DNA of 64,000 nt from NCBI GenBank assembly GCA_963663385.2, contig CAXXXD010000004.1, positions 128,001 to 192,000 on the forward strand, written 5' to 3'. Source of the DNA: Oceanispirochaeta sp. (lineage in GTDB: Bacteria; Spirochaetota; Spirochaetia; DSM-2461). Shown here in pieces: positions 22,328 through 34,255 of the stretch; within the stretch, counting starts at the first letter, position 1; each line of letters starts with the position of its first letter. Below the pieces are notes generated by a model. It saw only the letters and a program-made list of their open reading frames with translations, made no database searches and was not told the DNA's origin. A program made the position numbers and the translations under genes.

Positions 22328-23485
22328 TCAGGCAGCACAGGGCCGCAGGTTTTTCTCCTCTTTTTGTTTTTTACACAGGATCTGCCGTGTAATGATGACA
22401 GCATACAGAAAGACGGAAACCGCGGCTGAGAGAAGTATCAGGGAATAGAGGCCTGTATTGGGGATAAATATCTTATACAGAAAGGTTCCAAGTACCGCAA
22501 AGGCGACAAAGGGACAGATAAGGCTCCACGTTTCTATATAAAACTTTCCGGTATTCAATTCTCTGGAAAAATACTCCTTCATGACAGAAAGACCGAATCC
22601 CAGGTACCAGAACTCAAAAACAAATCCGCCCAGTACAATCAGGACTGCAAGCCAGTGCATATGGAACTCAAACTGTTTTTCAAAGTAGTGAACAAGTCGG
22701 AATCCGCTGATGGACAGGAGGGTTGTAATGGGAACAGGAGAGAGCAGGGCGGGCATCCCTTTGGGGGCAGGCAGAGATTCTGAATTGAACTGATTTTTCA
22801 GGGCATGGTAGAAGAACAGCCCAAAGAGGAAGACGGTCTGTGATCCGGAAAGAAAAGATAAAAAGGCGGCGATCCCGCTTATGACAGGAGAGTTGGCCAT
22901 CGCAGCCAGTCCCGTACCAGTTACAGTCGTCATTGCCAGAGCAAACGGATGAAGAAGCCAGCTGAAATTTATCTTATCCAAAGAAAAATTTCGGGAAAAA
23001 AGTGACATGAGCATACCTGTCTCTTTTACTATAATGGCTGCCCACAGGATACTCCATAGAGTCAGGGCCGGTGCCATCAGTAACTGAAAATGGTTATGGA
23101 AAAGGGGAACAAAAAACCGGACTACCGCAATAAACACATTAAAAGTCATACCAATTGAAATAAACGGGGTGACAAGAGTGGTGTTATGAAGGGAATCTTT
23201 CTTAAGCTGATAGTATGCGGGAGATCTCATCCATCTGAAAAGACGGGTGAAAAGCTGAGCCGAAAGGATTAAATGAACCGTCCCGAATAGCAGCATTATG
23301 CCCATTAGCAGGGGAAAAAGAACAGACTGAAAGGGGGATAAACCGTCAAATTGAATCCCGTTAAAAGATATAAGACCAGGTCCGCTGTAATAAGTATACT
23401 GAAGAAAGGCAAACGGGATAATTGAGATGCCGCCCGCACCTACAGCTGAAAGAAACTGAAGAGGATAAAACTCTTTCTTTTCCAT
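22328..23485 (-). CDS. Polytopic membrane protein resembling the TsoY (seleno)protein family
   Basis: N-terminal FYPLQFLSAVGAGG motif and about 10 TMs, recognised from memory; ends C-A-A-TGA. Confidence 0.6.
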   Translation of the reverse strand: MEKKEFYPLQFLSAVGAGGISIIPFAFLQYTYYSGPGLISFNGIQFDGLSPFQSVLFPLLMGIMLLFGTVHLILSAQLFTRLFRWMRSPAYYQLKKDSLHNTTLVTPFISIGMTFNVFIAVVRFFVPLFHNHFQLLMAPALTLWSILWAAIIVKETGMLMSLFSRNFSLDKINFSWLLHPFALAMTTVTGTGLAAMANSPVISGIAAFLSFLSGSQTVFLFGLFFYHALKNQFNSESLPAPKGMPALLSPVPITTLLSISGFRLVHYFEKQFEFHMHWLAVLIVLGGFVFEFWYLGFGLSVMKEYFSRELNTGKFYIETWSLICPFVAFAVLGTFLYKIFIPNTGLYSLILLSAAVSVFLYAVIITRQILCKKQKEEKNLRPCAA

Positions 23486-23594: not shown

Positions 23595-23622
23595 TTGACA
23601 AGCATCGAATTTCAGCTATATT
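23595..23622 (+). promoter_or_regulatory. Putative sigma70 promoter
   Basis: TTGACA-16 bp-TATATT. Confidence 0.55.
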
Positions 23623-23638
23623 TGAACATAACATTCAT

Positions 23639-23817
23639 AGCAGACAAAGGACCCTTAATGCTAACAATGTCTGCTTATATCTTTTTTATTCGAAGGAATT
23701 TTCCTGAAAGGGAAATCGTTGAAGGTATAAGTAGTTTCGTTGTAGGTATATAGGGGGGGAGGTCTCGGTCTCCCTGAACAGCGCAGCTCCTCTCTTCGCC
23801 TTCGAAAAGGAGTCATT
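23639..23817 (+). ncRNA. Candidate structured cis-regulatory leader, copy A
   Basis: AGCAGACA/TGTCTGCT stem around AAGGACCCTTAATGCTAACAA; homologous to 28052-28197. Confidence 0.55.
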
Positions 23818-24021
23818 ATGAGTTCCAAATTATGGTTTGTTACAAACGGTGTACAGCTGATTCATGTCTTCGAAAAAAGGTCCCTGGCCGAGCAGGAGTT
23901 GAAGAAGTATCAGGACGATCCTGATTACGGTTACTATGATTGCTACGGTCTGGATATCGACGATCTGGAAGACTATCCGGAAGAATATGATATTGCTCTG
24001 GACGAAGGATTCCTTGATTAA
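23818..24021 (+). CDS. Small acidic Asp/Tyr-rich hypothetical protein (67 aa)
   Basis: AAGGAG SD and ATG start; fills the gap before potA. Confidence 0.7.
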   Translation: MSSKLWFVTNGVQLIHVFEKRSLAEQELKKYQDDPDYGYYDCYGLDIDDLEDYPEEYDIALDEGFLD

Positions 24022-24070: not shown

Positions 24071-25279
24071 TTGAAAGATTTTCTTGTCTTCGAAGGGATT
24101 AGTAAATCCTTCGGATCTGTAGAAGTTATCAAAGATCTGAATCTTAACGTCAAAAAGGGAGAGGTCTTCAGTCTGTTGGGACCATCGGGCTGCGGGAAAA
24201 CCACTCTTCTGAAAATATGCGGTGGATTTGAAGAACCCGATGCAGGCAGGATGCTGTTGAATGGCAAGGATATCCTGTCCCTGCCGGGGCATAAGCGTCC
24301 GGTCAATACGGTATTTCAGAATTATGCCCTGTTTCCGCATCTGTCTGTGGGTGAGAATATAGCTTTTGGTCTGAAAGTTTCCCGCAAAGGGTTTTCCAGA
24401 AAAGAGATTTCCAGGGAAGTGGACTGGGCTCTCGATCTTATTCAGATGAATGAATATATCCATAGCAGACCTTCAGAGCTATCAGGAGGTCAGAAGCAGC
24501 GGGTTGCTATTGCAAGAGCGGTTATCAACAAACCGGAGCTCCTGCTTCTGGACGAGCCTTTGGCTGCGCTCGACCTCAAACTCCGTCAGAAAATGCTGCT
24601 GGAACTGGATCAGATTCATGACGAAGTAGGCATAACTTTTCTTTTTGTAACCCATGACCAGGGGGAGGCTATGAGCCTCTCCGACAGAATCGCCATCATG
24701 AACCTGGGGAAAATTGAGCAGGTAGGATCTCCCGCGGAGATCTATGAAAGTCCTGTTTCCAGTTTTACAGCGGCTTTTATTGGTGATACGAATTTTTTTG
24801 ACGGGATTGTCAAATCCCAGAGTGAAGACGGTCAGTATTCAATACTTGATATTGAAGGACTTCCGTCAGCCCGTTGCTACAACGATCAGGCTCATACAGT
24901 GGGGGACCATATCAACCTGTCACTGAGGCCTGAGAAGATCAGGATCAGCAGGAAAGAACCCGAAACTGACAAGTCCCTGAACATTATTAAAGGGGTTGTG
25001 GAAGATAAGGTCTATCTGGGGGCGTATACAAAATACTGGGTTCGCTGCGGAAACTGGCTGATTGTTGTCCTTAATGCTCACAGGCATTTTCTGCTGGACC
25101 GGAATCCTCCGGAATGGGAAGATGAAGTCTGGCTCAGCTGGCATCAGGACGACGGTTTTATATTGCTGAAATACAGGAAAAAGGACGAAGTCCTTTTAAC
25201 GAATCCTGATGAAAAATATGCCGGGATGACCCCTGATCTACAGCCGGGGGCCATACTGCAGTCGGAAGAAGACTCATGA
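24071..25279 (+). CDS. potA: Spermidine/putrescine ABC transporter ATPase
   Basis: GPSGCGKT, VNTVFQNYALFPHL, LSGGQKQR, DEPLAALDLKLR. Confidence 0.9.
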   Translation: MKDFLVFEGISKSFGSVEVIKDLNLNVKKGEVFSLLGPSGCGKTTLLKICGGFEEPDAGRMLLNGKDILSLPGHKRPVNTVFQNYALFPHLSVGENIAFGLKVSRKGFSRKEISREVDWALDLIQMNEYIHSRPSELSGGQKQRVAIARAVINKPELLLLDEPLAALDLKLRQKMLLELDQIHDEVGITFLFVTHDQGEAMSLSDRIAIMNLGKIEQVGSPAEIYESPVSSFTAAFIGDTNFFDGIVKSQSEDGQYSILDIEGLPSARCYNDQAHTVGDHINLSLRPEKIRISRKEPETDKSLNIIKGVVEDKVYLGAYTKYWVRCGNWLIVVLNAHRHFLLDRNPPEWEDEVWLSWHQDDGFILLKYRKKDEVLLTNPDEKYAGMTPDLQPGAILQSEEDS

Positions 25280-26133
25280 AGAAACATGAGCTTGTGCTGA
25301 CAACTCCCTCATTCCTCTGGCTCAGTATATTTTTTATTATTCCATCGGCTCTTGTCCTCTTTATCAGCTTCAGGGGAACCGACTCTTATGGCGTCCTTAT
25401 GCCGGTATGGACACTGGATGCGTACAGGTCCCTTTCCGGGATGAATCTGATGCCGGTTATTATCAGGACCCTCAGGCTCAGTCTGTATACCACTTTGATC
25501 TGTCTGATCCTTGCCATTCCGGCCGCCTATGCCATGTCCCGATTGAGCAGGGGGGCGCAGACAATTCTGTTAATGATTCTGGTTGTTCCCTTCTGGACGA
25601 ATTTCCTTATCCGCATCTATGCCTGGAAAGTCCTGCTTCATCCCGATGGATTTATTAAGCAGATTTTTGTCTTTCTAGGGCTGATCGATCAGAATACGAC
25701 CCTTCTCTATACGGAAGGGGCCGTGCTTCTCGTTCTGGTCTATACCTATCTACCTTTTGCCCTGCTCCCCCTATACAGCGCTGCCGACAGCTTTGATATC
25801 ACACTGCTTGATGCCGGCAGGGATTTGGGAAGCAATACACTGCAGCTTATAATCAGGGTTTACCTTCCCGGTATCCGACAGGGGATTATTAATGCGGTCC
25901 TGGTTGTTTTTATCCCGGTCATGGGCAGCTACATCATTCCTGAAATTGTCGGTGGTCCGAATTCGGAAATGCTGGGAAACAAGATTGCCCAGTATGTATT
26001 CACTGACAGGAATATTCCCCGGGCAGGAGCCCTCTCGGGATTTCTGATTCTCATTATCCTCCTTCCATCCCTGATCTCTCTTATAAACAGGGAGAGTCCG
26101 GCCAAAAGCCGGAAGGAGCTGGTGCAGGCATGA
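25276..26133 (+). CDS. potB: Spermidine/putrescine ABC transporter permease
   Basis: PFWTNFLIRIYAW, YTYLPF, DAGRDLG. Confidence 0.9.
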   Translation: MKKHELVLTTPSFLWLSIFFIIPSALVLFISFRGTDSYGVLMPVWTLDAYRSLSGMNLMPVIIRTLRLSLYTTLICLILAIPAAYAMSRLSRGAQTILLMILVVPFWTNFLIRIYAWKVLLHPDGFIKQIFVFLGLIDQNTTLLYTEGAVLLVLVYTYLPFALLPLYSAADSFDITLLDAGRDLGSNTLQLIIRVYLPGIRQGIINAVLVVFIPVMGSYIIPEIVGGPNSEMLGNKIAQYVFTDRNIPRAGALSGFLILIILLPSLISLINRESPAKSRKELVQA

Positions 26134-26906
26134 AAAGGAAATCGGCTTTTCCGATGATAATACTCATACTGATTCTTGTTTTCTTCTACCTCCCCCTGTT
26201 TGTACTGGTCATCAATTCATTCAACGCATCCCGGGTCTCTTCAGTATGGGGGGGATTTTCTCTGAAATGGTATAAGAAGCTGCTGGGTGACCAGAATCTG
26301 CTCCGCTCTGTCAAAAATACTGTGATTGTAACAAGTGTCTCGGTATTCTGTTCAACAGTACTGGGGAGTCTGGCGGGTGTGAGCATTGCCCGTTTCAGGA
26401 GCAGGGTGCAAAAAGTGCATTCAGTCTTTATCGCTCTCCCCCTGATCATGCCGGATATCCTGATCGGTATCAGTCTCCTTCTGTTCTTTATCTCATTCAG
26501 GATTCAGCTCTCTCTGCTGACGATTATAATAGGGCATATTACCTTCTGTATCAGTTATGTGGCTTCTACGGTTCAGGCCCGGTTTCAGAATTTTGATTTT
26601 TCCCTGATAGAGGCGGCCCAGGATCTGGGTGCTGACAGATGGCAGGTGTTATGGAAAATATATCTGCCCCTGCTGGCGCCGGGAATCCTCTCCGGTGCCA
26701 TGCTGGCCATGACTCTGTCTCTGGATGATTTTATTATCAGTTTTTTTACGGCGGGGCCGGGTGCTTCAACCCTGCCCATACAAATTTACAGTATGATCCG
26801 TCACGGCTCACCCCCTGTGATTAATGCACTTTCCACGCTTTTTATCGGGTTCACGTTTCTGTTCCTGCTGGTTTATCAGCGGATCTCAAGGAGATTAGAT
26901 CAATGA
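26130..26906 (+). CDS. potC: Spermidine/putrescine ABC transporter permease
   Basis: SFN...WGGFSLKWY, EAAQDLGA, LSLDDF, TLPIQIY. Confidence 0.9.
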   Translation: MKRKSAFPMIILILILVFFYLPLFVLVINSFNASRVSSVWGGFSLKWYKKLLGDQNLLRSVKNTVIVTSVSVFCSTVLGSLAGVSIARFRSRVQKVHSVFIALPLIMPDILIGISLLLFFISFRIQLSLLTIIIGHITFCISYVASTVQARFQNFDFSLIEAAQDLGADRWQVLWKIYLPLLAPGILSGAMLAMTLSLDDFIISFFTAGPGASTLPIQIYSMIRHGSPPVINALSTLFIGFTFLFLLVYQRISRRLDQ

Positions 26907-27949
26907 AAAAAAACTTTTATTACCTGCTGTCGGTTATTGTTTTACTGGCTGTTGTTCTGGGCGGATGTTCCAGAGAGAGCAACCGGAAACTCTATCTGTA
27001 CAACTGGTCCGATTATATCGATGAGGAACTGGTAAAGGCCTTTACAGAAGAAACCGGTATCCAGATTATTATGGACTACTTTGATTCAAACGAGTCCATG
27101 TATGCCAAGTTACGTTCCGGAGCCGATGGTTATGATATTGTATTTCCCACCAGCTATATGGTGGAAATCATGAACGCCGGAGGCATGCTGCAGAAAATCG
27201 ATCATGGAAAGCTGGCGAACCTGAAGAATATTGACCCTAAGTTCACCGTCCTTTCGGTCGATTCCGAAATGGAGTACTCTGTTCCCTATATGGTCAGTAC
27301 TACCGGGATAGGGTATCTGGAATCCGGGCTGGGGGAAGTTGAATCTTTGTCCTGGGATATCTTTGCTTCCCCGGATTATTCATCCAAAATGACAATGCTT
27401 AATGATGTGAGAGAGACGATCGGGGCTGCTTTAAAGTACCTCGGTTACTCCTACAATTCCAGGTCCGGACAGGAGCTGGCGGAAGCCAGAGATCTACTTA
27501 TTTCCTGGAAGAGGAATCTGGCGAAATTTGAGAATGATCAGTATAAGAACGGACTGGTCAGCGGAGAGTTTTCCATATGTCAGGGTTACTCGGGGGATAT
27601 CCTTCAGGTTCAGGAAGAGCGGGATGATCTTCGCTTTATTGTACCAAGAGAGGGCACTTCCATCTCCATTGATAATATGGTGATTCTCAGGAATGCGAAG
27701 AATACGGATGCGGCTTATGAGTTTATTGACTATATGTTAAGGGGTGAAGTTGCTGCCTCCAACATTGAGTATGTGTACTACCTGGCTCCCAATACGGCGG
27801 CATACGGTCTTCTGAGTGATGAAATTCGAAATGATCCGGCTGTCTTCATTTCTGATGATGTACTTGAGAATTCCGAGATTCTTCTGGATCTGGGGGATGA
27901 TAATGAACTGTATAGTCGAACCTGGGATGAAATAAAGTCTGCAAAATGA
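26903..27949 (+). CDS. potD: Spermidine/putrescine-binding lipoprotein
   Basis: LGGC lipobox; YNWSDYID, FDSNESMYAKL, YDIVFPTSY, YSGD. Confidence 0.9.
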   Translation: MKKNFYYLLSVIVLLAVVLGGCSRESNRKLYLYNWSDYIDEELVKAFTEETGIQIIMDYFDSNESMYAKLRSGADGYDIVFPTSYMVEIMNAGGMLQKIDHGKLANLKNIDPKFTVLSVDSEMEYSVPYMVSTTGIGYLESGLGEVESLSWDIFASPDYSSKMTMLNDVRETIGAALKYLGYSYNSRSGQELAEARDLLISWKRNLAKFENDQYKNGLVSGEFSICQGYSGDILQVQEERDDLRFIVPREGTSISIDNMVILRNAKNTDAAYEFIDYMLRGEVAASNIEYVYYLAPNTAAYGLLSDEIRNDPAVFISDDVLENSEILLDLGDDNELYSRTWDEIKSAK

Positions 27950-27983: not shown

Positions 27984-28011
27984 TTGACAATCTGTAAATA
28001 TGGATTATTTT
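27984..28011 (+). promoter_or_regulatory. Putative sigma70 promoter
   Basis: TTGACA-16 bp-TATTTT. Confidence 0.4.
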
Positions 28012-28051
28012 TTGTGTTAATTCTGCAAGTTTTTTTAACACTTGTACAGGC

Positions 28052-28197
28052 ACAGACTAAGGACCCTTTATGCTAACAAAAGTCTGTTATCATCTTCATG
28101 TGTGCAGAAAGGTCTTGGAGTTGATTTCAGGAATGTTTCGTAGGGGGGATTCCCCTCTTTTTCCATCATGCCTCTCCTCTCGTGAATAGAGGGATAA
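28052..28197 (+). ncRNA. Candidate structured cis-regulatory leader, copy B
   Basis: ACAGACT/AGTCTGT stem around AAGGACCCTTTATGCTAACAAA; two compensatory changes relative to copy A. Confidence 0.55.
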
Positions 28198-28272: not shown

Positions 28273-28285
28273 ATTGGGGGAAATT

Positions 28286-29356
28286 ATGGATACTGATGAA
28301 TTAGTGGATAACGCTTCAGGTCAGTTGAAATCCGTATTGGAATCTCTAACTGGTTTAAGAGATGAAGTTCTGGATTCCTCAAGGAGTCTGGAGGAGAGGC
28401 TTGAGTCATACCAGGATATTATTGCCTCGGAGGTCGGGGACACCATCCTGAGCAGGATGAGAAATTTAGAGAGAAATGCGGGACTGAAACAGCTCTATAT
28501 CAAATTTGAAGGCAGTAACCCCTCCGGTTCACAGAAAGATCGAATTGCGTTTGCCCAGGTTGATGATGCCATGCGGAGGGGGTATAAAAAGATCGTATTT
28601 GCTACTTGCGGAAATTATGGCGTTGCTATTGCCTTTGCCGCATCTCTGGCCGGGATTGAATGTAAAATCTATATTCCGGAAACCTACCATACAAAGAGAG
28701 AAACTGAAATCCTGAAATTTGGAGTTCAAATTGTCAGAAGAGGCAAGGACTATGAAGAATCTGTTTATCTGTCCAGTCGAGAGGCTGTCGAGTTTGACTG
28801 TTATGATGCAAATCCGGGGGGAGTAAACACAAACCTGCAGATCAAAGCCTATGCAGAGATATCTTATGAAATTTACGATGAGTTGAGAGATGCTCCTGCC
28901 ATAGTGGCTGTTCCAGTATCAAACGGGACTACATTGACCGGGATTTACAGAGGATTTGTCTCTCTGTACAGAAGAGGGAAAACCTCAAGAATTCCCAGAA
29001 TAATAGCAGGTTCAAGTTCAAAGAAGAACCCCATTATTGTCTCTTTCAAACGGGGACTGGATGTTTGTGAAGATCTTGATCCGGCTACTGTGAAAGAATC
29101 GGTAGTCAACGAACCTTTGATTAACTGGCACTCAATAGATGGCAATATGGCATTGAGCGCCCTTAAAGAGTCACAGGGCTGGGCATCGGATGTCAGTGAC
29201 AAGAGCATGATGAAATATGCCAGTCTTCTTAAAAATCAGGAGGGATTGTCTGTTCTGCCGGCTTCAACAGCCGGTTTAATAGCCCTTGTGAAGTATAATG
29301 AAATGCAATCTCTTCCGGGAGATCGTTATGTCGCTGTTATTACAGGAAGGAAATAG
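28286..29356 (+). CDS. Fold-type II PLP-dependent enzyme (threonine-synthase-like)
   Basis: KFEGSNPSGSQKDR (PLP lysine), ATCGNYG, VPVSNGT, VITG. Confidence 0.85.
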   Translation: MDTDELVDNASGQLKSVLESLTGLRDEVLDSSRSLEERLESYQDIIASEVGDTILSRMRNLERNAGLKQLYIKFEGSNPSGSQKDRIAFAQVDDAMRRGYKKIVFATCGNYGVAIAFAASLAGIECKIYIPETYHTKRETEILKFGVQIVRRGKDYEESVYLSSREAVEFDCYDANPGGVNTNLQIKAYAEISYEIYDELRDAPAIVAVPVSNGTTLTGIYRGFVSLYRRGKTSRIPRIIAGSSSKKNPIIVSFKRGLDVCEDLDPATVKESVVNEPLINWHSIDGNMALSALKESQGWASDVSDKSMMKYASLLKNQEGLSVLPASTAGLIALVKYNEMQSLPGDRYVAVITGRK

Positions 29357-29358
29357 GT

Positions 29359-30429
29359 ATGTATATCGATGGTCATGCTGTTGTATATTGTGAGGGAGCT
29401 TTTGCATCGACATATGGGAAAACGGCTCATGGTCTTGTTCGCTATACGCAAAGGTATAATCTGGTTGCGGTCATTGACAGTAGTCTGGCCGGAAGGGATT
29501 CCGGGGATTTTCTTGATAATGCCCCTAATGGTATACCCATAGTCTCATCCCTTAATGAAGCATTTAAAGTAGCGAACTCTCAAACGGTAGAGTTATCCTA
29601 CTTTGTTCTGGGGATTGCCACTGATGGCGGATATTTAACTCAGGATATCAGGTCTGCTGTTATTGAAGCTCTGGAGTCTGGATTGAATGTTGATTCCGGA
29701 CTTCATGACTTTCTTAATGACGACAGGGAAATCAGACTCCTGGCTGAATCATACGGTCTTGGTATTCGTGATATCAGAAAACTGGACGGGAACAGCAACC
29801 ACATGTTCACTGGCAAGATTGAAGAGGTTAAAGCCATAAGAGTTGCGCTGCTTGGCACGGACTCAGCCATCGGAAAAAGGACGACAGCCTGGATAATTAC
29901 CAATGCCATGGCAGACAGGGGGCTCTCGGCAGAATTCATCGGAACAGGCCAGACGGCATGGCTGCAGGGGGCAGACTACAGTATTGTCATGGATTCATTA
30001 CTGAATGATTATGTCAGCGGTGAACTGGAACATATTGTGTGGAAGGCCTGGACTGAAAAAAAAATGGATTATGCCATAATTGAAGGTCAGGGCAGCCTCA
30101 TGAATCCCGGATATCCCGGTGGCTTTGAGATTTTGGCTGCGTGCAGACCCCACGGGATTATTCTTCAGCATTCTCCCTCCCGGAAGGAGTACGACGGATT
30201 TCCGGGGTATCCTCTGGATAGGATAGAGGACCAGATTCACGCTATTGAATTCCTGTCAAAAAAACCGGTAGTCGCCATTACAATTAATCATGAAGGTATC
30301 CGGCGTGATAAAATTGCTGAGGAGTGTCAGGCCCTGGAAAACAAGCTGGGGATACCAGTCGTTGATCCTCTGGTGGATGGTGCAGAACGGATTATTCCGG
30401 TTATTGAAGAGCTGAAAAATGAAAATTGA
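29359..30429 (+). CDS. DUF1611-family P-loop protein (DgcN-like)
   Basis: GKTAHGLVR, SGLH, GTDSAIGKRTT, GTGQT, EGQGSL. Confidence 0.85.
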   Translation: MYIDGHAVVYCEGAFASTYGKTAHGLVRYTQRYNLVAVIDSSLAGRDSGDFLDNAPNGIPIVSSLNEAFKVANSQTVELSYFVLGIATDGGYLTQDIRSAVIEALESGLNVDSGLHDFLNDDREIRLLAESYGLGIRDIRKLDGNSNHMFTGKIEEVKAIRVALLGTDSAIGKRTTAWIITNAMADRGLSAEFIGTGQTAWLQGADYSIVMDSLLNDYVSGELEHIVWKAWTEKKMDYAIIEGQGSLMNPGYPGGFEILAACRPHGIILQHSPSRKEYDGFPGYPLDRIEDQIHAIEFLSKKPVVAITINHEGIRRDKIAEECQALENKLGIPVVDPLVDGAERIIPVIEELKNEN

Positions 30430-31480
30430 TGATTTTGAAGTAGTAAAAGTCTGTTTACAGATGAAGGACCCCTATGAGGTCGCCTATGAAAAGTTTGACA
30501 AAGCAGAAAACCTGCTGATCAGAATCAGCGCCGGGAAACTGCATGGATGGGGGTGTATTGCTCCCGATCCTCATGTCACAGGCGAAAATATTGAAGACGT
30601 TTATAGAAAATCTTTAGAGATCCTTCCGGAAGTTCTTCTTAAAAGAGATCCCTTCAGGAAAGCGCTCATAATGAAATATCTGAAAGCGGCAGCTCCGGGG
30701 TTGTTCAGCCTCTGGGCAGGTGTTGATACGGCTCTCTGGGACCTGCTGGGCAAACAGGCCCATCTGCCAATCTGGAAAATCCTGGGAGGATATCGGAACT
30801 ATATCAGTACCAGTGTTACCATAGGTATCTGTGGAATCGACGAGACCCTGGAAAGGGCCCGGGATTTTGAGCTTCAGGGGTTTCATATTCTCAAGATAAA
30901 GGGCGGGAATGATGTTTCGGAGGATATAGCACGGCTTCAGGGACTCCGCTCGGCTCTGGGAACGGATATGAAAATCCGATTTGACGCAAATCAGGGTTAT
31001 TCTGTTGAAGAAGCTCTTTTCTTTGTCAAAAATATAAAAGAACTCGACATTCAGCTGTTTGAACAGCCGACGATTAAATCCAAACCCGATCAGTTGGGTG
31101 CAATTATAAATAAAACAAATATACCAATTATGGCAGACGAAAGCCTGGTTTCTCTTCTGGATGCTTTTTCTCTGGTAAAAAAAGGCCTGATAGATCTGAT
31201 GAATATTAAACTGATGAAAGTGGGCGGGATCACAGAGGCCATCCAGGTCGATGGTCTTGCAAGGGCCGCCGGAGTGGAGGTTATGGTCGGATGTATGGAC
31301 GAAGCGGCTTTGGGTATTTCAGCAGGTCTGCATTTTGCCCTCAGTCGAAAAAACATCAGGTTTGCAGACCTGGATGGCCATCTGGGATTGATTGATGATC
31401 CGTCAATAGAATGCATTTCATTAAACAGGGGGAAACTTTATCCTTCCGGTTCTCCCGGATTCGGCTGGGCAGGGATGTAG
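30419..31480 (+). CDS. Dipeptide epimerase / racemase, enolase superfamily (AEE/DgcA-like)
   Basis: KIK, DANQG, EQP, ADES, NIKLMK, GCM, DLDG. Confidence 0.88.
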   Translation: MKIDDFEVVKVCLQMKDPYEVAYEKFDKAENLLIRISAGKLHGWGCIAPDPHVTGENIEDVYRKSLEILPEVLLKRDPFRKALIMKYLKAAAPGLFSLWAGVDTALWDLLGKQAHLPIWKILGGYRNYISTSVTIGICGIDETLERARDFELQGFHILKIKGGNDVSEDIARLQGLRSALGTDMKIRFDANQGYSVEEALFFVKNIKELDIQLFEQPTIKSKPDQLGAIINKTNIPIMADESLVSLLDAFSLVKKGLIDLMNIKLMKVGGITEAIQVDGLARAAGVEVMVGCMDEAALGISAGLHFALSRKNIRFADLDGHLGLIDDPSIECISLNRGKLYPSGSPGFGWAGM

Positions 31481-31523: not shown

Positions 31524-32588
31524 TTAGAACCATTTTTTCCGCTTGAAAATGAAAATCATAACTCCGGCTAAACCAATAAGCAGCAGCCAGAAATAGAGAT
31601 AACCGTATCGCAGGTGCAGTTCCGGTATAAAATCGAAATTTGTCCCGTAAATTCCGGTAATAAGGGTCAATGGTAAGAAAACGACCGAAAATACGGTTAG
31701 AAATTTAATAGTCTCGTTCAGCTTGTCATTCATCAATCCGTTATACCTGGCCAGGTATTCATTGCATATCTCTTTGTACAGGTCTATTGTTTCAATAACC
31801 TGGGTCATATTTGCTATAAGGTCAGAAAAATAGATCCTGTACTTCTCTTCGATTAGTGGTTGAGATTCTTTCAGAAGGATTCGTAATGCTTCTCTGGCTG
31901 GTCTGACAGCTTTCCCTAAATACAATAATTCCTTTTTAGAGGCCTGTATGGATCCAAGGACTTTTTCATCGGCACTAACCGTGAGCATTTCTTCTGTTTT
32001 TTCTATTCTTTCTGCCAGATTCTGCATGATGTCGATGTAATTATCGGTAATTGAATCCAGAAGAGAGTATGCCAGATATATTGTATTCTCTTTCCGGACT
32101 TTACCAAGGTTCTCATGAAGCCGTTTCCTTACTGAATCAAACACATCGCCCGGATGTTCCTGGAAGGTCAGTAATACGTGACTGCCGGCAATCATGCCGA
32201 TCTGCTCCGATTGTACGAGTTCCTTACCTGCATTATAGTTAAGCATCTTTATCGAAAGGAAGAATCCTCCGGGAAGTTCTTCGGCTTTGGGTCTTAGAGT
32301 TGTGTTCAGGATGTCCGCCATGGTGAGCTGGGGAATAGAAAAAAGATCTCTTATCCCCGAAAGCTTCTCAATATCTTCCAACCCATCGCAGTTGATCCAT
32401 CTATTGAGGGGCGTGTCGGTATCCAGTGTCCGTTGAGGTAATCCGGCGACCCTTAGTTCTTCAATCGAATCTCCGGAATAGAGAATTTCATGTATCTCGG
32501 TATTTTTAAGAACTTTTGTTCCGATGTAAACCAATTCTCCTGGACGTCTCCCAAGGAGTTCTGATCTTTTTTTGAAAAAACGGGCCAT
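31524..32588 (-). CDS. corA: CorA-family divalent cation transporter (GTN variant)
   Basis: PGELVYIG, TFQE..GDVF, two C-terminal TMs with IYGTNF..IPEL, KRKKWF end; probable start ATG 32588. Confidence 0.88.
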   Translation of the reverse strand: MARFFKKRSELLGRRPGELVYIGTKVLKNTEIHEILYSGDSIEELRVAGLPQRTLDTDTPLNRWINCDGLEDIEKLSGIRDLFSIPQLTMADILNTTLRPKAEELPGGFFLSIKMLNYNAGKELVQSEQIGMIAGSHVLLTFQEHPGDVFDSVRKRLHENLGKVRKENTIYLAYSLLDSITDNYIDIMQNLAERIEKTEEMLTVSADEKVLGSIQASKKELLYLGKAVRPAREALRILLKESQPLIEEKYRIYFSDLIANMTQVIETIDLYKEICNEYLARYNGLMNDKLNETIKFLTVFSVVFLPLTLITGIYGTNFDFIPELHLRYGYLYFWLLLIGLAGVMIFIFKRKKWF

Positions 32589-32680
32589 AGGCTGCTCCTG
32601 AATAATTATAGTGTCAAGTTTGAAATACCTTTTACATATACAGTATAATGCAATTATTATTAAATGGTGAGGTTGCAGCA

Positions 32681-33421
32681 ATGGGAAGGATTCCGATCCC
32701 CTGGGGACAACTGGACATCAGGGATAAAAAAGAGATTGATTTACCATTTGAACAGAAAGTTTCTCTGCAGAGGCTGGAAGATGAAGTGATTGTGACAAAA
32801 GCCCTGCATTCCGAGAATACAACGTATCGTTTTATTGTCGGAAAGAACAATCATATCTATCTTCAGCCCAGCCTCCCCGATTTGCCGATTACGATTAAAC
32901 CGGAACAGATCACATCAATACTGCCGGGATGCAGGATGGAGGTCTTTATCGAGGTTCCCCTTCTGCTTTCTGTATACTACGGGACTAACTCCAGAAAGGA
33001 ACTATTAATGGAATTCCCGCTAGAGCCGTTATCCCGAAGCTTCTTTGGAAGCCCCGACAATGGCGAGATCTCCTACTTTCTGGAGAGCCCGCTATTGTGC
33101 GAATATGAAGCCTATGAGAATAAGGATTCCAGTATATACTGCCCTGTTGCTATCACCAATAAGTCACTGCAGAAACTGGATGTAGAACGCATGATTGTGA
33201 GAGTTCCTCTCCTGTCAATCTTTTCCTGCAAGGATTCTCTGCTTAGCAGTCCTGTTTCTATTGTATTCAGGGGAGCTGATATGGTCAGCCAGATCAGTTA
33301 TTTAAAATACGGCAGTGAAAAAAAGCAGCAGGTAGTTCCGGTTGCACCACCCCGGCAGAATGATGATAAAAGTCTTATAAAAAAGAGCTTTTATTTCTTC
33401 AAAACTCTATATACAGGATAA
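32681..33421 (+). CDS. DUF432-like hypothetical protein
   Basis: Soluble protein with FGSPDNGEISY, coupled to an MscS gene; GAGG SD before ATG 32681. Confidence 0.55.
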   Translation: MGRIPIPWGQLDIRDKKEIDLPFEQKVSLQRLEDEVIVTKALHSENTTYRFIVGKNNHIYLQPSLPDLPITIKPEQITSILPGCRMEVFIEVPLLLSVYYGTNSRKELLMEFPLEPLSRSFFGSPDNGEISYFLESPLLCEYEAYENKDSSIYCPVAITNKSLQKLDVERMIVRVPLLSIFSCKDSLLSSPVSIVFRGADMVSQISYLKYGSEKKQQVVPVAPPRQNDDKSLIKKSFYFFKTLYTG

Positions 33422-33424
33422 ACT

Positions 33425-34255
33425 ATGCCGATTTTGAATTTTCAGGCTGTTGCAACGCTATTTGAGAATTTCCAGTTCCGGAAGGTTCTGGAGGTCTTTC
33501 TTATTCTCTTTTCCGGCTGGATAATTATCAGAGTTATCCTGCTTCTGGTCATAAGAGTCTTCATGAAGAACTCAGGTGTCCAGAATCAGATGCTGATAAG
33601 AAAATTTATTAATTATACAGGATTCGGAATCATCCTTATAATCGTGCTTGCGGAACTGGGAATAAAACTCGGCGCTCTACTGGGTGCTGCGGGAATAATG
33701 GGTATTGCAATTGGTGTGGCGTCACAGAAGAGTCTTGGAAATATTATCAGCGGGTTCTTTATGGTGGCGGAAAAAAGCTTTGAAATCGGGGATGTTATAA
33801 AGGTCGGTGATAAAATCGGTGTGGTTTATTCGATAGAGCTGCTCTCTATCATGTTAAAGACCTTTGATAACCTCCTTATCCGGATTCCCCATGAGACACT
33901 GATTTCATCGGATGTTATAAATATTACCAGATTTCCCATAAGACGAATGGATCTGTTTATTACTGTCTCCTACGATCAGGATATTGATTCTGTTATGAGG
34001 GAACTGGAGCAGGCTTACAGGAAGAATGTATTTTGTCTGGATGAACCTAAGCCATTCCTGCTGGTGAAGGATTTTCAGGATTCAGGCATCATGATCCAGT
34101 TTGGTGTCTGGTTTGAAAAAGACTGCTATGTTCAGGTTCGGAATTCGATCATGTCAGATATTCTGAAAACCTTCAGAAATGCCGGGATTACCATTCCCTA
34201 CCCCCATGTTGAAATCGTATACGATCAGAATAAAGAATATAATTTTACTGAGTGA
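33425..34255 (+). CDS. mscS: Small-conductance mechanosensitive channel (MscS family)
   Basis: GAAGIMGIAIGVASQKSLGNIISG, FEIGDVI, GITIPYP. Confidence 0.9.
   Translation: MPILNFQAVATLFENFQFRKVLEVFLILFSGWIIIRVILLLVIRVFMKNSGVQNQMLIRKFINYTGFGIILIIVLAELGIKLGALLGAAGIMGIAIGVASQKSLGNIISGFFMVAEKSFEIGDVIKVGDKIGVVYSIELLSIMLKTFDNLLIRIPHETLISSDVINITRFPIRRMDLFITVSYDQDIDSVMRELEQAYRKNVFCLDEPKPFLLVKDFQDSGIMIQFGVWFEKDCYVQVRNSIMSDILKTFRNAGITIPYPHVEIVYDQNKEYNFTE

Follow-up and report, generated by a model that had tools for sequence, protein, structure and literature searches.

A conserved hairpin in the 5′ leaders of spirochaete operons, a candidate orphan riboswitch

The c-di-AMP riboswitch is tied to genes of the K+ transport, osmotic and cell-wall type, according to PMC3766115. 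The ldcC RNA is a small hairpin before arginine, ornithine and SAM decarboxylase genes and potA, recorded in two spirochaete species (PMC5737381). The spermidine riboswitch, a SAM-I variant of Gram-positive genera, controls polyamine biosynthesis genes, and PMC10853860 states that no definitive spermidine class had been shown before it. The odc1 motif is an alphaproteobacterial large-loop hairpin before a polyamine-pathway decarboxylase gene (PMC8632094), and Na+-I (DUF1646) and related ion riboswitches are small aptamers associated with ion and osmotic genes (PMC9337991).

Here, two leaders (copies A and B) were analyzed in a window of 64 kb, which is the whole stretch of Oceanispirochaeta sp. 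DNA under study. The first-pass annotation had placed them outside the known riboswitch families, and the Rfam scan agreed: nothing reached the gathering score in the window, permissive E-values brought up only weak, unrelated families on copies A and B, and the motif gave no match in 14 homologous loci or in four viral loci with the loop module (L248 counted among them). A conserved structured element was found in the 5′ leaders of non-homologous genes, a pattern expected of riboswitches. The leader is very probably a real structured cis-regulatory RNA and, judged by sequence, we somewhat favor an undescribed small-ligand riboswitch, that is, an orphan.

Two leaders and their operons

Both leaders were found where the first-pass annotation had put them, behind TTGACA-16-TATWTT promoters and with a near-invariant loop on a stem. 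The features of copy A and the pot operon are as follows (R1 is the covariance model of the motif).

23595..23622, + strand: sigma70-type promoter, 11/12 consensus (TTGACA 23595-600, 16-nt spacer, TATATT 23617-22); transcription would start at about 23629
23639..23675, + strand: core hairpin, candidate aptamer, 72 bits with R1 (P1, 23639/40-23646 with 23668-23674/75; closing pair G23649-C23665; invariant GACCC 23650-54 and GCTAA 23660-64)
23674..23734, + strand: second helix P2 (arms 23674-83 and 23722-31, with a variable hairpin inserted), predicted to be able to run on into the 3′ strand of P1
23735..23776, + strand: anti-aptamer tract and G-run (23751-59) from folding predictions; predicted partners are the aptamer loop (long rod) or a C-run at about 23769-75 (local hairpin)
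23787..23812, + strand: pyrimidine tract (CTCCTCTC, 23787-94) and Shine-Dalgarno sequence (AAGGAG, 23807-12), predicted to be paired
23818..24021, + strand: acidic protein of 67 aa (18 D+E, 5 K+R) of an unnamed family, with weak DUF7336 similarity
24071..27949, + strand: potABCD-type polyamine ABC transporter; TIGR01187 potA above its cut-off, best PotD match below cut-off

Copy B and its operon follow.

27984..28011, + strand: sigma70-type promoter, 10/12 consensus (TTGACA 27984-89, 16-nt spacer, TATTTT up to 28011)
28024..28046, + strand: additional 5′ hairpin; by eye, other B-type copies show one too
28052..28087, + strand: core hairpin, 65.5 bits with R1 (arms 28052-58 and 28081-87; closing pair G28061-C28077)
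28087..28125, + strand: P2 (arms 28087-97 and 28117-25)
28142..28168, + strand: terminator-like G-run hairpin (28142-28158) with a U-rich tail; its left arm is also a predicted partner of the aptamer loop
28198..28272, + strand: 24-codon ORF (Shine-Dalgarno sequence 28188-94)
28274..31480, + strand: PLP enzyme (PRK06381, threonine-synthase family), DUF1611/DgcN-like protein and L-Ala-D/L-Glu epimerase/DgcA-like protein

The DUF1611/DgcN-like and epimerase/DgcA-like matches both lie below the curated cut-offs, and the D-glutamate role of DgcN and DgcA is taken from NCBIfam names alone. The 24-codon ORF, together with an out-of-frame DDDRDIA stretch behind copy B, is possibly a decayed form of the small acidic ORF, on weak evidence (E near 0.03 when three sequences were searched). 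A membrane protein of 385 aa without a Pfam match is encoded divergently from copy A (22328-23485, − strand). The corA gene (31524-32681) is on the opposite strand and outside operon B; over 31524-34255 this minus-strand gene diverges from DUF432 and mscS. At locus L166, DUF432, mscS and a corA-like start stand in line downstream of the motif and trkH/trkA.

The family of the small acidic protein has 38 representatives in a 50%-identity library, and weak DUF7336 similarity was found in 12 of 28 members. The window protein matched no Pfam family at E ≤ 0.001 and no relative in the PDB (best E, 0.39), and its best Atlas score was 0.84. It was modeled with confidence as a small alpha/beta protein (pLDDT 87.6), with a best fold match that is not distinctive (Z 5.1). 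A paralogous ORF in the same genome (G000:C3:1187783-1187983, L128) has a promoter but no motif upstream.

A hairpin family in the class Spirochaetia

The conserved part of the leader is a hairpin of about 40 nt, in which a CAGAC/GUCUG stem, an internal loop and a G-C pair close GAMCC-N5-GCUAA. The consensus reads (G/A)CAGAC, 3–4 nt, G and GAMCC, 5 nt, GCUAA and C, 3–5 nt, GUCUG(C/U); the gap between GAMCC and GCUAA is usually 5 nt, and 6–7 nt in three copies. In the class, 67 distinct copies fit the full pattern (loci L001-L198), three of them in the window's own genome, a count that leaves out weakened copies in L077, L120 and L121. The conserved, structured, aptamer-like leader that had been proposed from two copies, with a downstream region predicted to be switchable, was recovered as a family, with a smaller conserved part.

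The recurrence goes far past what chance would give: across the whole genome (5.3 Mb), the loop of 21 nt gave two matches at one mismatch or fewer and three at four or fewer, all within the same stem, and R1 found these three copies at 64–72 bits with nothing further below E 0.2. The third copy (G000:C4:109328-109376; L002:829-877) lies outside the window, before genes encoding an unnamed P-loop protein of 341 aa and a GNAT protein. The covariance-model search of Spirochaetes that had been proposed at the outset did find homologs, as R1 had matches (E ≤ 0.01) in 20 of the order's 38 genomes. At class level, a pattern search returned 53 places in 38 of 401 genomes, compared with 13 for a reversed control pattern; two matches without the stem (G347 and G243) were dropped, leaving 36 genomes of nine families. 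An R1 search of a phylum sample of 151 genomes returned the own genome and two weak, loop-less matches, adding no true copy. Coverage beyond Spirochaetota consisted of one exact-pattern scan of genome contigs, with a single match in a Spirochaetales MAG, and a metagenome scan, with 13 loci before the same kinds of genes; divergent forms may exist elsewhere. The full stem-loop pattern had no match in viral sequences, and looser patterns gave 31 and 25 viral loci, many of them seemingly chance or coding matches.

The outer pair of the stem is formed in all 67 copies (GC 55, AU 8, GU 4), and in the core stem A-U is replaced by G-U three times and C-G by U-A once. The pair closing GAMCC/GCUAA is G-C in 66 copies and C-G in one, which indicates that the G before GAMCC pairs with the C after GCUAA. 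When 66 distinct rows were aligned by fitting them to the model, 95.8% of the cells paired, a value equaled by none of 500 shuffles and compared with 15–52% in slid controls, although these figures are inflated by relatedness and by collecting patterns that favor pairing. The core stem is almost invariant, and the covariation therefore consists of few events in related genomes. Covariation in homologs had been expected; wobbles and compensatory swaps are indeed present, but only three of eight pairs change on both sides. Of the two compensatory changes proposed between copies A and B, that of the outer pair stands, whereas the inner A-U to U-A change is not supported, with pairing in 46 of 67 copies and U-A in copy B only.

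The family was also approached independently through the small protein. Its ORF is encoded in 27 genomes outside the home family, and a search by the loop alone found the loop upstream in 15 of them, with the stem intact in 13; in one further genome the form is degenerate but its stem compensated, and the other 11 lack the motif. Loci L013, L014 and L075 (genomes G013, G015 and G012) carry two back-to-back motif copies with opposite small acidic ORFs. A TTGAC sequence occurs 43–49 nt 5′ of the stem in 41 of the 67 copies and 63–70 nt in 18, which would place the hairpin at the 5′ end of the transcript.

A second hairpin had been described after the core, and P2 is indeed present in 58 of 67 copies and absent from nine. 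Among the A/C-type copies, 42 were compared, with the 3′ strand located by a purine-tolerant pattern; 419 of their 420 P2 pairs are kept around inserts of variable length, with many exchanges of A and G opposite U and one G-C pair. The sequences GTTTCG, TAGGGGG and the pyrimidine tract of copy A, which had been read as a conserved switch tract, occur in only three, three and two of the 67 copies; the aptamer loop or a local C-run is the more consistent predicted partner of the G-run.

The leader was correctly seen to head both the pot operon and that of DUF1611 and the epimerase, and its putative regulon is far wider and tied mainly to the small acidic ORF, which is the first gene after the motif in 49 of 67 copies. 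Genome G020 (96% complete) has the motif without a homolog of this protein, which is therefore dispensable for the motif. Whatever gene came next after the motif, or after the small ORF, was counted by hand, some being assigned by likeness to a profiled neighbor; the numbers below are raw counts among the genes listed and include several copies that are close kin. Three non-homologous polyamine systems lie downstream of 15 of the 67 copies, and the other 52 have no recognized polyamine gene. Arginine decarboxylases of two unrelated kinds account for eight copies, seven with SpeA, three of these with carboxyspermidine dehydrogenase- and decarboxylase-type genes, and one with the pyruvoyl type alongside an arginase-family gene; potA follows seven copies. 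Also among the genes listed are those for RRM proteins (eight copies), rpsU (three), RimK-type ligases (five), the PLP enzyme/DUF1611/epimerase set (five, one fragmented), the 341-aa P-loop protein (five, mostly with GNAT), Ddl-like ATP-grasp proteins (two), RNase D-like proteins (two), TrkH/TrkA (one) and a SET-domain protein (one). Genes for MscS occur farther downstream in at least four copies.

The Ddl-like ATP-grasp proteins at L175:2943-5084 and L181:1042-3186 have 714 aa, and a fusion to an M20 peptidase, shown in one, is a possible ligase/amidase pair. The 341-aa P-loop family is widespread in other phyla by its Atlas features, and an Atlas lead links it to DUF1611 (16% of one cluster); BLAST found no similarity between the 341-aa protein and the DUF1611 protein of the window. 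Taken together, the regulon would read as one of cation and osmotic homeostasis. A role of the ATP-grasp/peptidase and GNAT proteins in polyamine modification, and of the acidic protein in binding polycations, is speculative.

The predicted switch and its rival explanations

In free folding of 56 leaders, the core hairpin was usually outcompeted by a long rod (median hairpin probability, 0.02), in which the core 3′ strand and the loop are predicted to pair with the tract downstream of P2. The two states are close, with a median difference of 0.85 kcal/mol over 62 leaders. Fold z-scores were −2.67 for copy A and −0.9 for copy B, the latter thus not unusual. Pairing between the loop and the downstream tract was better than in shuffles in 46 of 58 leaders (p ≤ 0.05 in 16), and a copy's own loop paired better than the loops of other copies in 39 of 58; with each distinct loop counted once, this held for 29 of 39 (p 0.003 by sign test, with kin not independent). 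The five variable loop bases therefore tend to recur, mirrored, downstream; in copy A, own-loop pairing was no better than in controls. When the hairpin was constrained to stay folded, the ribosome site was predicted to become easier to open in 32 of 62 leaders, harder in 13 and unchanged in 17, being unchanged in copy A and harder to open in copy B. These accessibility predictions lean toward an ON switch. However, a terminator-like hairpin, which would imply OFF, was found in six of nine B-type copies, including copy B, and in only two of 49 others, so that the predicted directions conflict.

The wobble and compensatory changes, the fixed position behind a sigma70 promoter and the putative loop-matching anti-aptamer point to a two-state RNA switch. 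By sequence, the hairpin lies a few bases behind a sigma70-type promoter, with near-invariant bases and a pairing kept by wobble and compensation. Folding predicts that it is metastable and that its loop and 3′ strand may zip with the tract after P2 into the long rod. During transcription, the hairpin would form first; a small ligand may then bind the structured loop, lock the hairpin and free the purine-rich tract for a local hairpin, which would alter how accessible the ribosome-binding site is or, in copies of the B type, might terminate transcription.

The same two states could be set by a protein instead of a small ligand. Binding of an RRM protein, CsrA, the small acidic protein or another protein to the loop would stabilize the hairpin against the rod, and protein sites are typically short invariant loops on short stems. 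RRM genes and rpsU stand behind eight and three copies, respectively, among the genes listed, the genome has CsrA, ANGGA occurs in 58 of 67 copies, and T4-like phages have a similar loop in an intergenic region. Other observations weigh against particular candidates. CsrA sites are ANGGA in an unpaired hairpin loop, usually repeated close to the Shine-Dalgarno sequence; in the motif the leading G of GGA is paired, and is C in one copy, and most invariant bases lie outside ANGGA. The small protein is strongly acidic, G020 lacks it, and 11 of the 27 genomes outside the home family have its ORF without an upstream motif. We regard a protein-binding leader as unlikely, though deserving of more weight than the explanations that follow. 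A switch without any ligand, driven by temperature, ionic strength or kinetic folding, would suit the predicted closeness in energy of hairpin and rod. As a cold-shock leader it would cover the RRM, S21, RNase D-like and polyamine genes, and some bacteria induce RRM and rpsU genes in the cold. Yet it leaves 11–12 near-invariant loop bases across nine families unexplained, and folding at 10 °C gave no consistent preference for the hairpin, which makes it improbable.

The remaining explanations would move the conserved signal from the RNA fold to DNA or to translation. The arms of the core form an inverted repeat that hardly varies, GGAAC and GTCTG resemble the −35 and −10 boxes of ECF promoters, and the element could be an ECF-sigma promoter (GGAMC...GTCTG) or a CAGAC-N-GTCTG operator palindrome behind the sigma70 promoter. 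ECF promoters, however, have a fixed spacer of 16–17 nt without internal conservation, whereas that of the motif is shorter and looser (14 nt in 47 copies, 15 in 17 and 16 in three) and holds the invariant GCTAAC; in addition, only a single strand would account for the wobbles to G-U, the swapped C-G pair, P2 and the match between loop and anti-aptamer. A DNA element is accordingly very unlikely. Attenuation by an upstream ORF starting at the loop ATG has the smallest chance. AAGGA followed by ATG is seen in both window copies, and the reported peptides of 31 and 39 aa do translate as described, but the expected conserved start and peptide were not found, since ATG is present in 44 of 67 copies, the other 23 have AAG, ACG, GTG, TTG or AGG, and the peptides range from 3 to 82 aa.

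For the favored small-ligand riboswitch, the ligand can be ranked as a guess. A polyamine or a precursor is tentatively placed first because three non-homologous supply systems lie downstream. c-di-AMP comes second and is itself doubtful, an inorganic cation is unlikely, and some other ligand is given the least weight. The candidate of 40–70 nt, which nature offers in 67 variants, with compensatory mutants and, beside speA, copies of the aptamer alone, is directly testable.

Comparison with known RNAs

The ldcC RNA (RF02440, SpF59) shares the decarboxylase/potA context with the motif, where 15 of 67 copies have it among the genes listed, but has another consensus and a two-stem layout. Identity of the two, suggested by the published text, was rejected by sequence comparison, because each model misses the other's RNA. 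RF02440 (cut-off 37.2 bits) gave no match on copies A and B at E ≤ 10 or at the motif places in the genome, and recovered a true ldcC RNA in L235 at 70.1 bits as a positive control, at which R1 had no match. This ldcC RNA (L235:5585-5639) lies on a Paenibacillus replicon about 360 nt 5′ of a carboxyspermidine dehydrogenase-like gene. RF02998 was set aside as an unrelated family. The spermidine riboswitch has SAM-I architecture, whereas the motif had no SAM-I-type Rfam match. The odc1 motif differs in its fixed 11-aa upstream ORF and in a ribosome-binding site within P1, and was rejected, the example printed in the supplement of PMC8632094 being without GCUAAC. Like the candidate aptamer, the Na+-I-type riboswitches are small and tied to ion and osmotic genes; no Na+-I-type Rfam match was found at the motif, and Na+ exporters were absent among the downstream genes listed. 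No description of the motif was found in a full-text literature search covering few subscription papers and passages of PMC5737381, and a term search of PMC11109978 (main text) gave no occurrence.

The rIII-30.9 intergenic region of T4-like phages (L215:480-760, − strand; L205; L272-L275) is a highly conserved sequence, some 135 nt long, in which helices are predicted, and it resembles a structured RNA of the phage. It has the same GAMCC-N5-GCUAA loop on a different stem closed by C-G pairs, had no Rfam match at E ≤ 1, and is matched in part by 407 phage records. The likeness may be due to chance because it was picked from a very large collection. Five viral contigs of 1–11 kb (L242, L255, L264, L257 and L259) are apparently structured and carry the same loop module, possibly also by chance.

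The c-di-AMP riboswitch holds its ligand at junctions. Its solved structures include 4QLM and 4QLN (PMC5393176). The consensus (RF00379) contains a helix whose last pair, G-C, has GAMC-C on its 5′ side and GCUAA on its 3′ side, letters and register that recur in the motif, but GAMCC and GCUAA are separated by 5–7 nt in the motif and by a three-way-junction domain in RF00379. The GAAUC and GUAGGG motifs of the two RF00379 three-way junctions are both missing from the spirochaete leader alignment, and the likeness is therefore no proof of c-di-AMP binding. With RF00379 (cut-off 38 bits), no match was found in the window and none of the 38 genomes of the order gave one over the cut-off; together with the absent junction motifs, this ruled out the motif as a c-di-AMP riboswitch of the known class. 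These spirochaetes encode c-di-AMP synthases, the host genome having two DAC-domain genes, and the canonical riboswitch was not found in them. [quoted passage not shown] Such a class would define a cation-homeostasis regulon of spirochaetes and give the first functional clues to the family of acidic 67-aa proteins, to that of the 341-aa P-loop protein and to the fusions of ATP-grasp and peptidase. The motif would link several uncharacterized protein families to polyamine and cation balance through a loop module that it has in common with a solved riboswitch.
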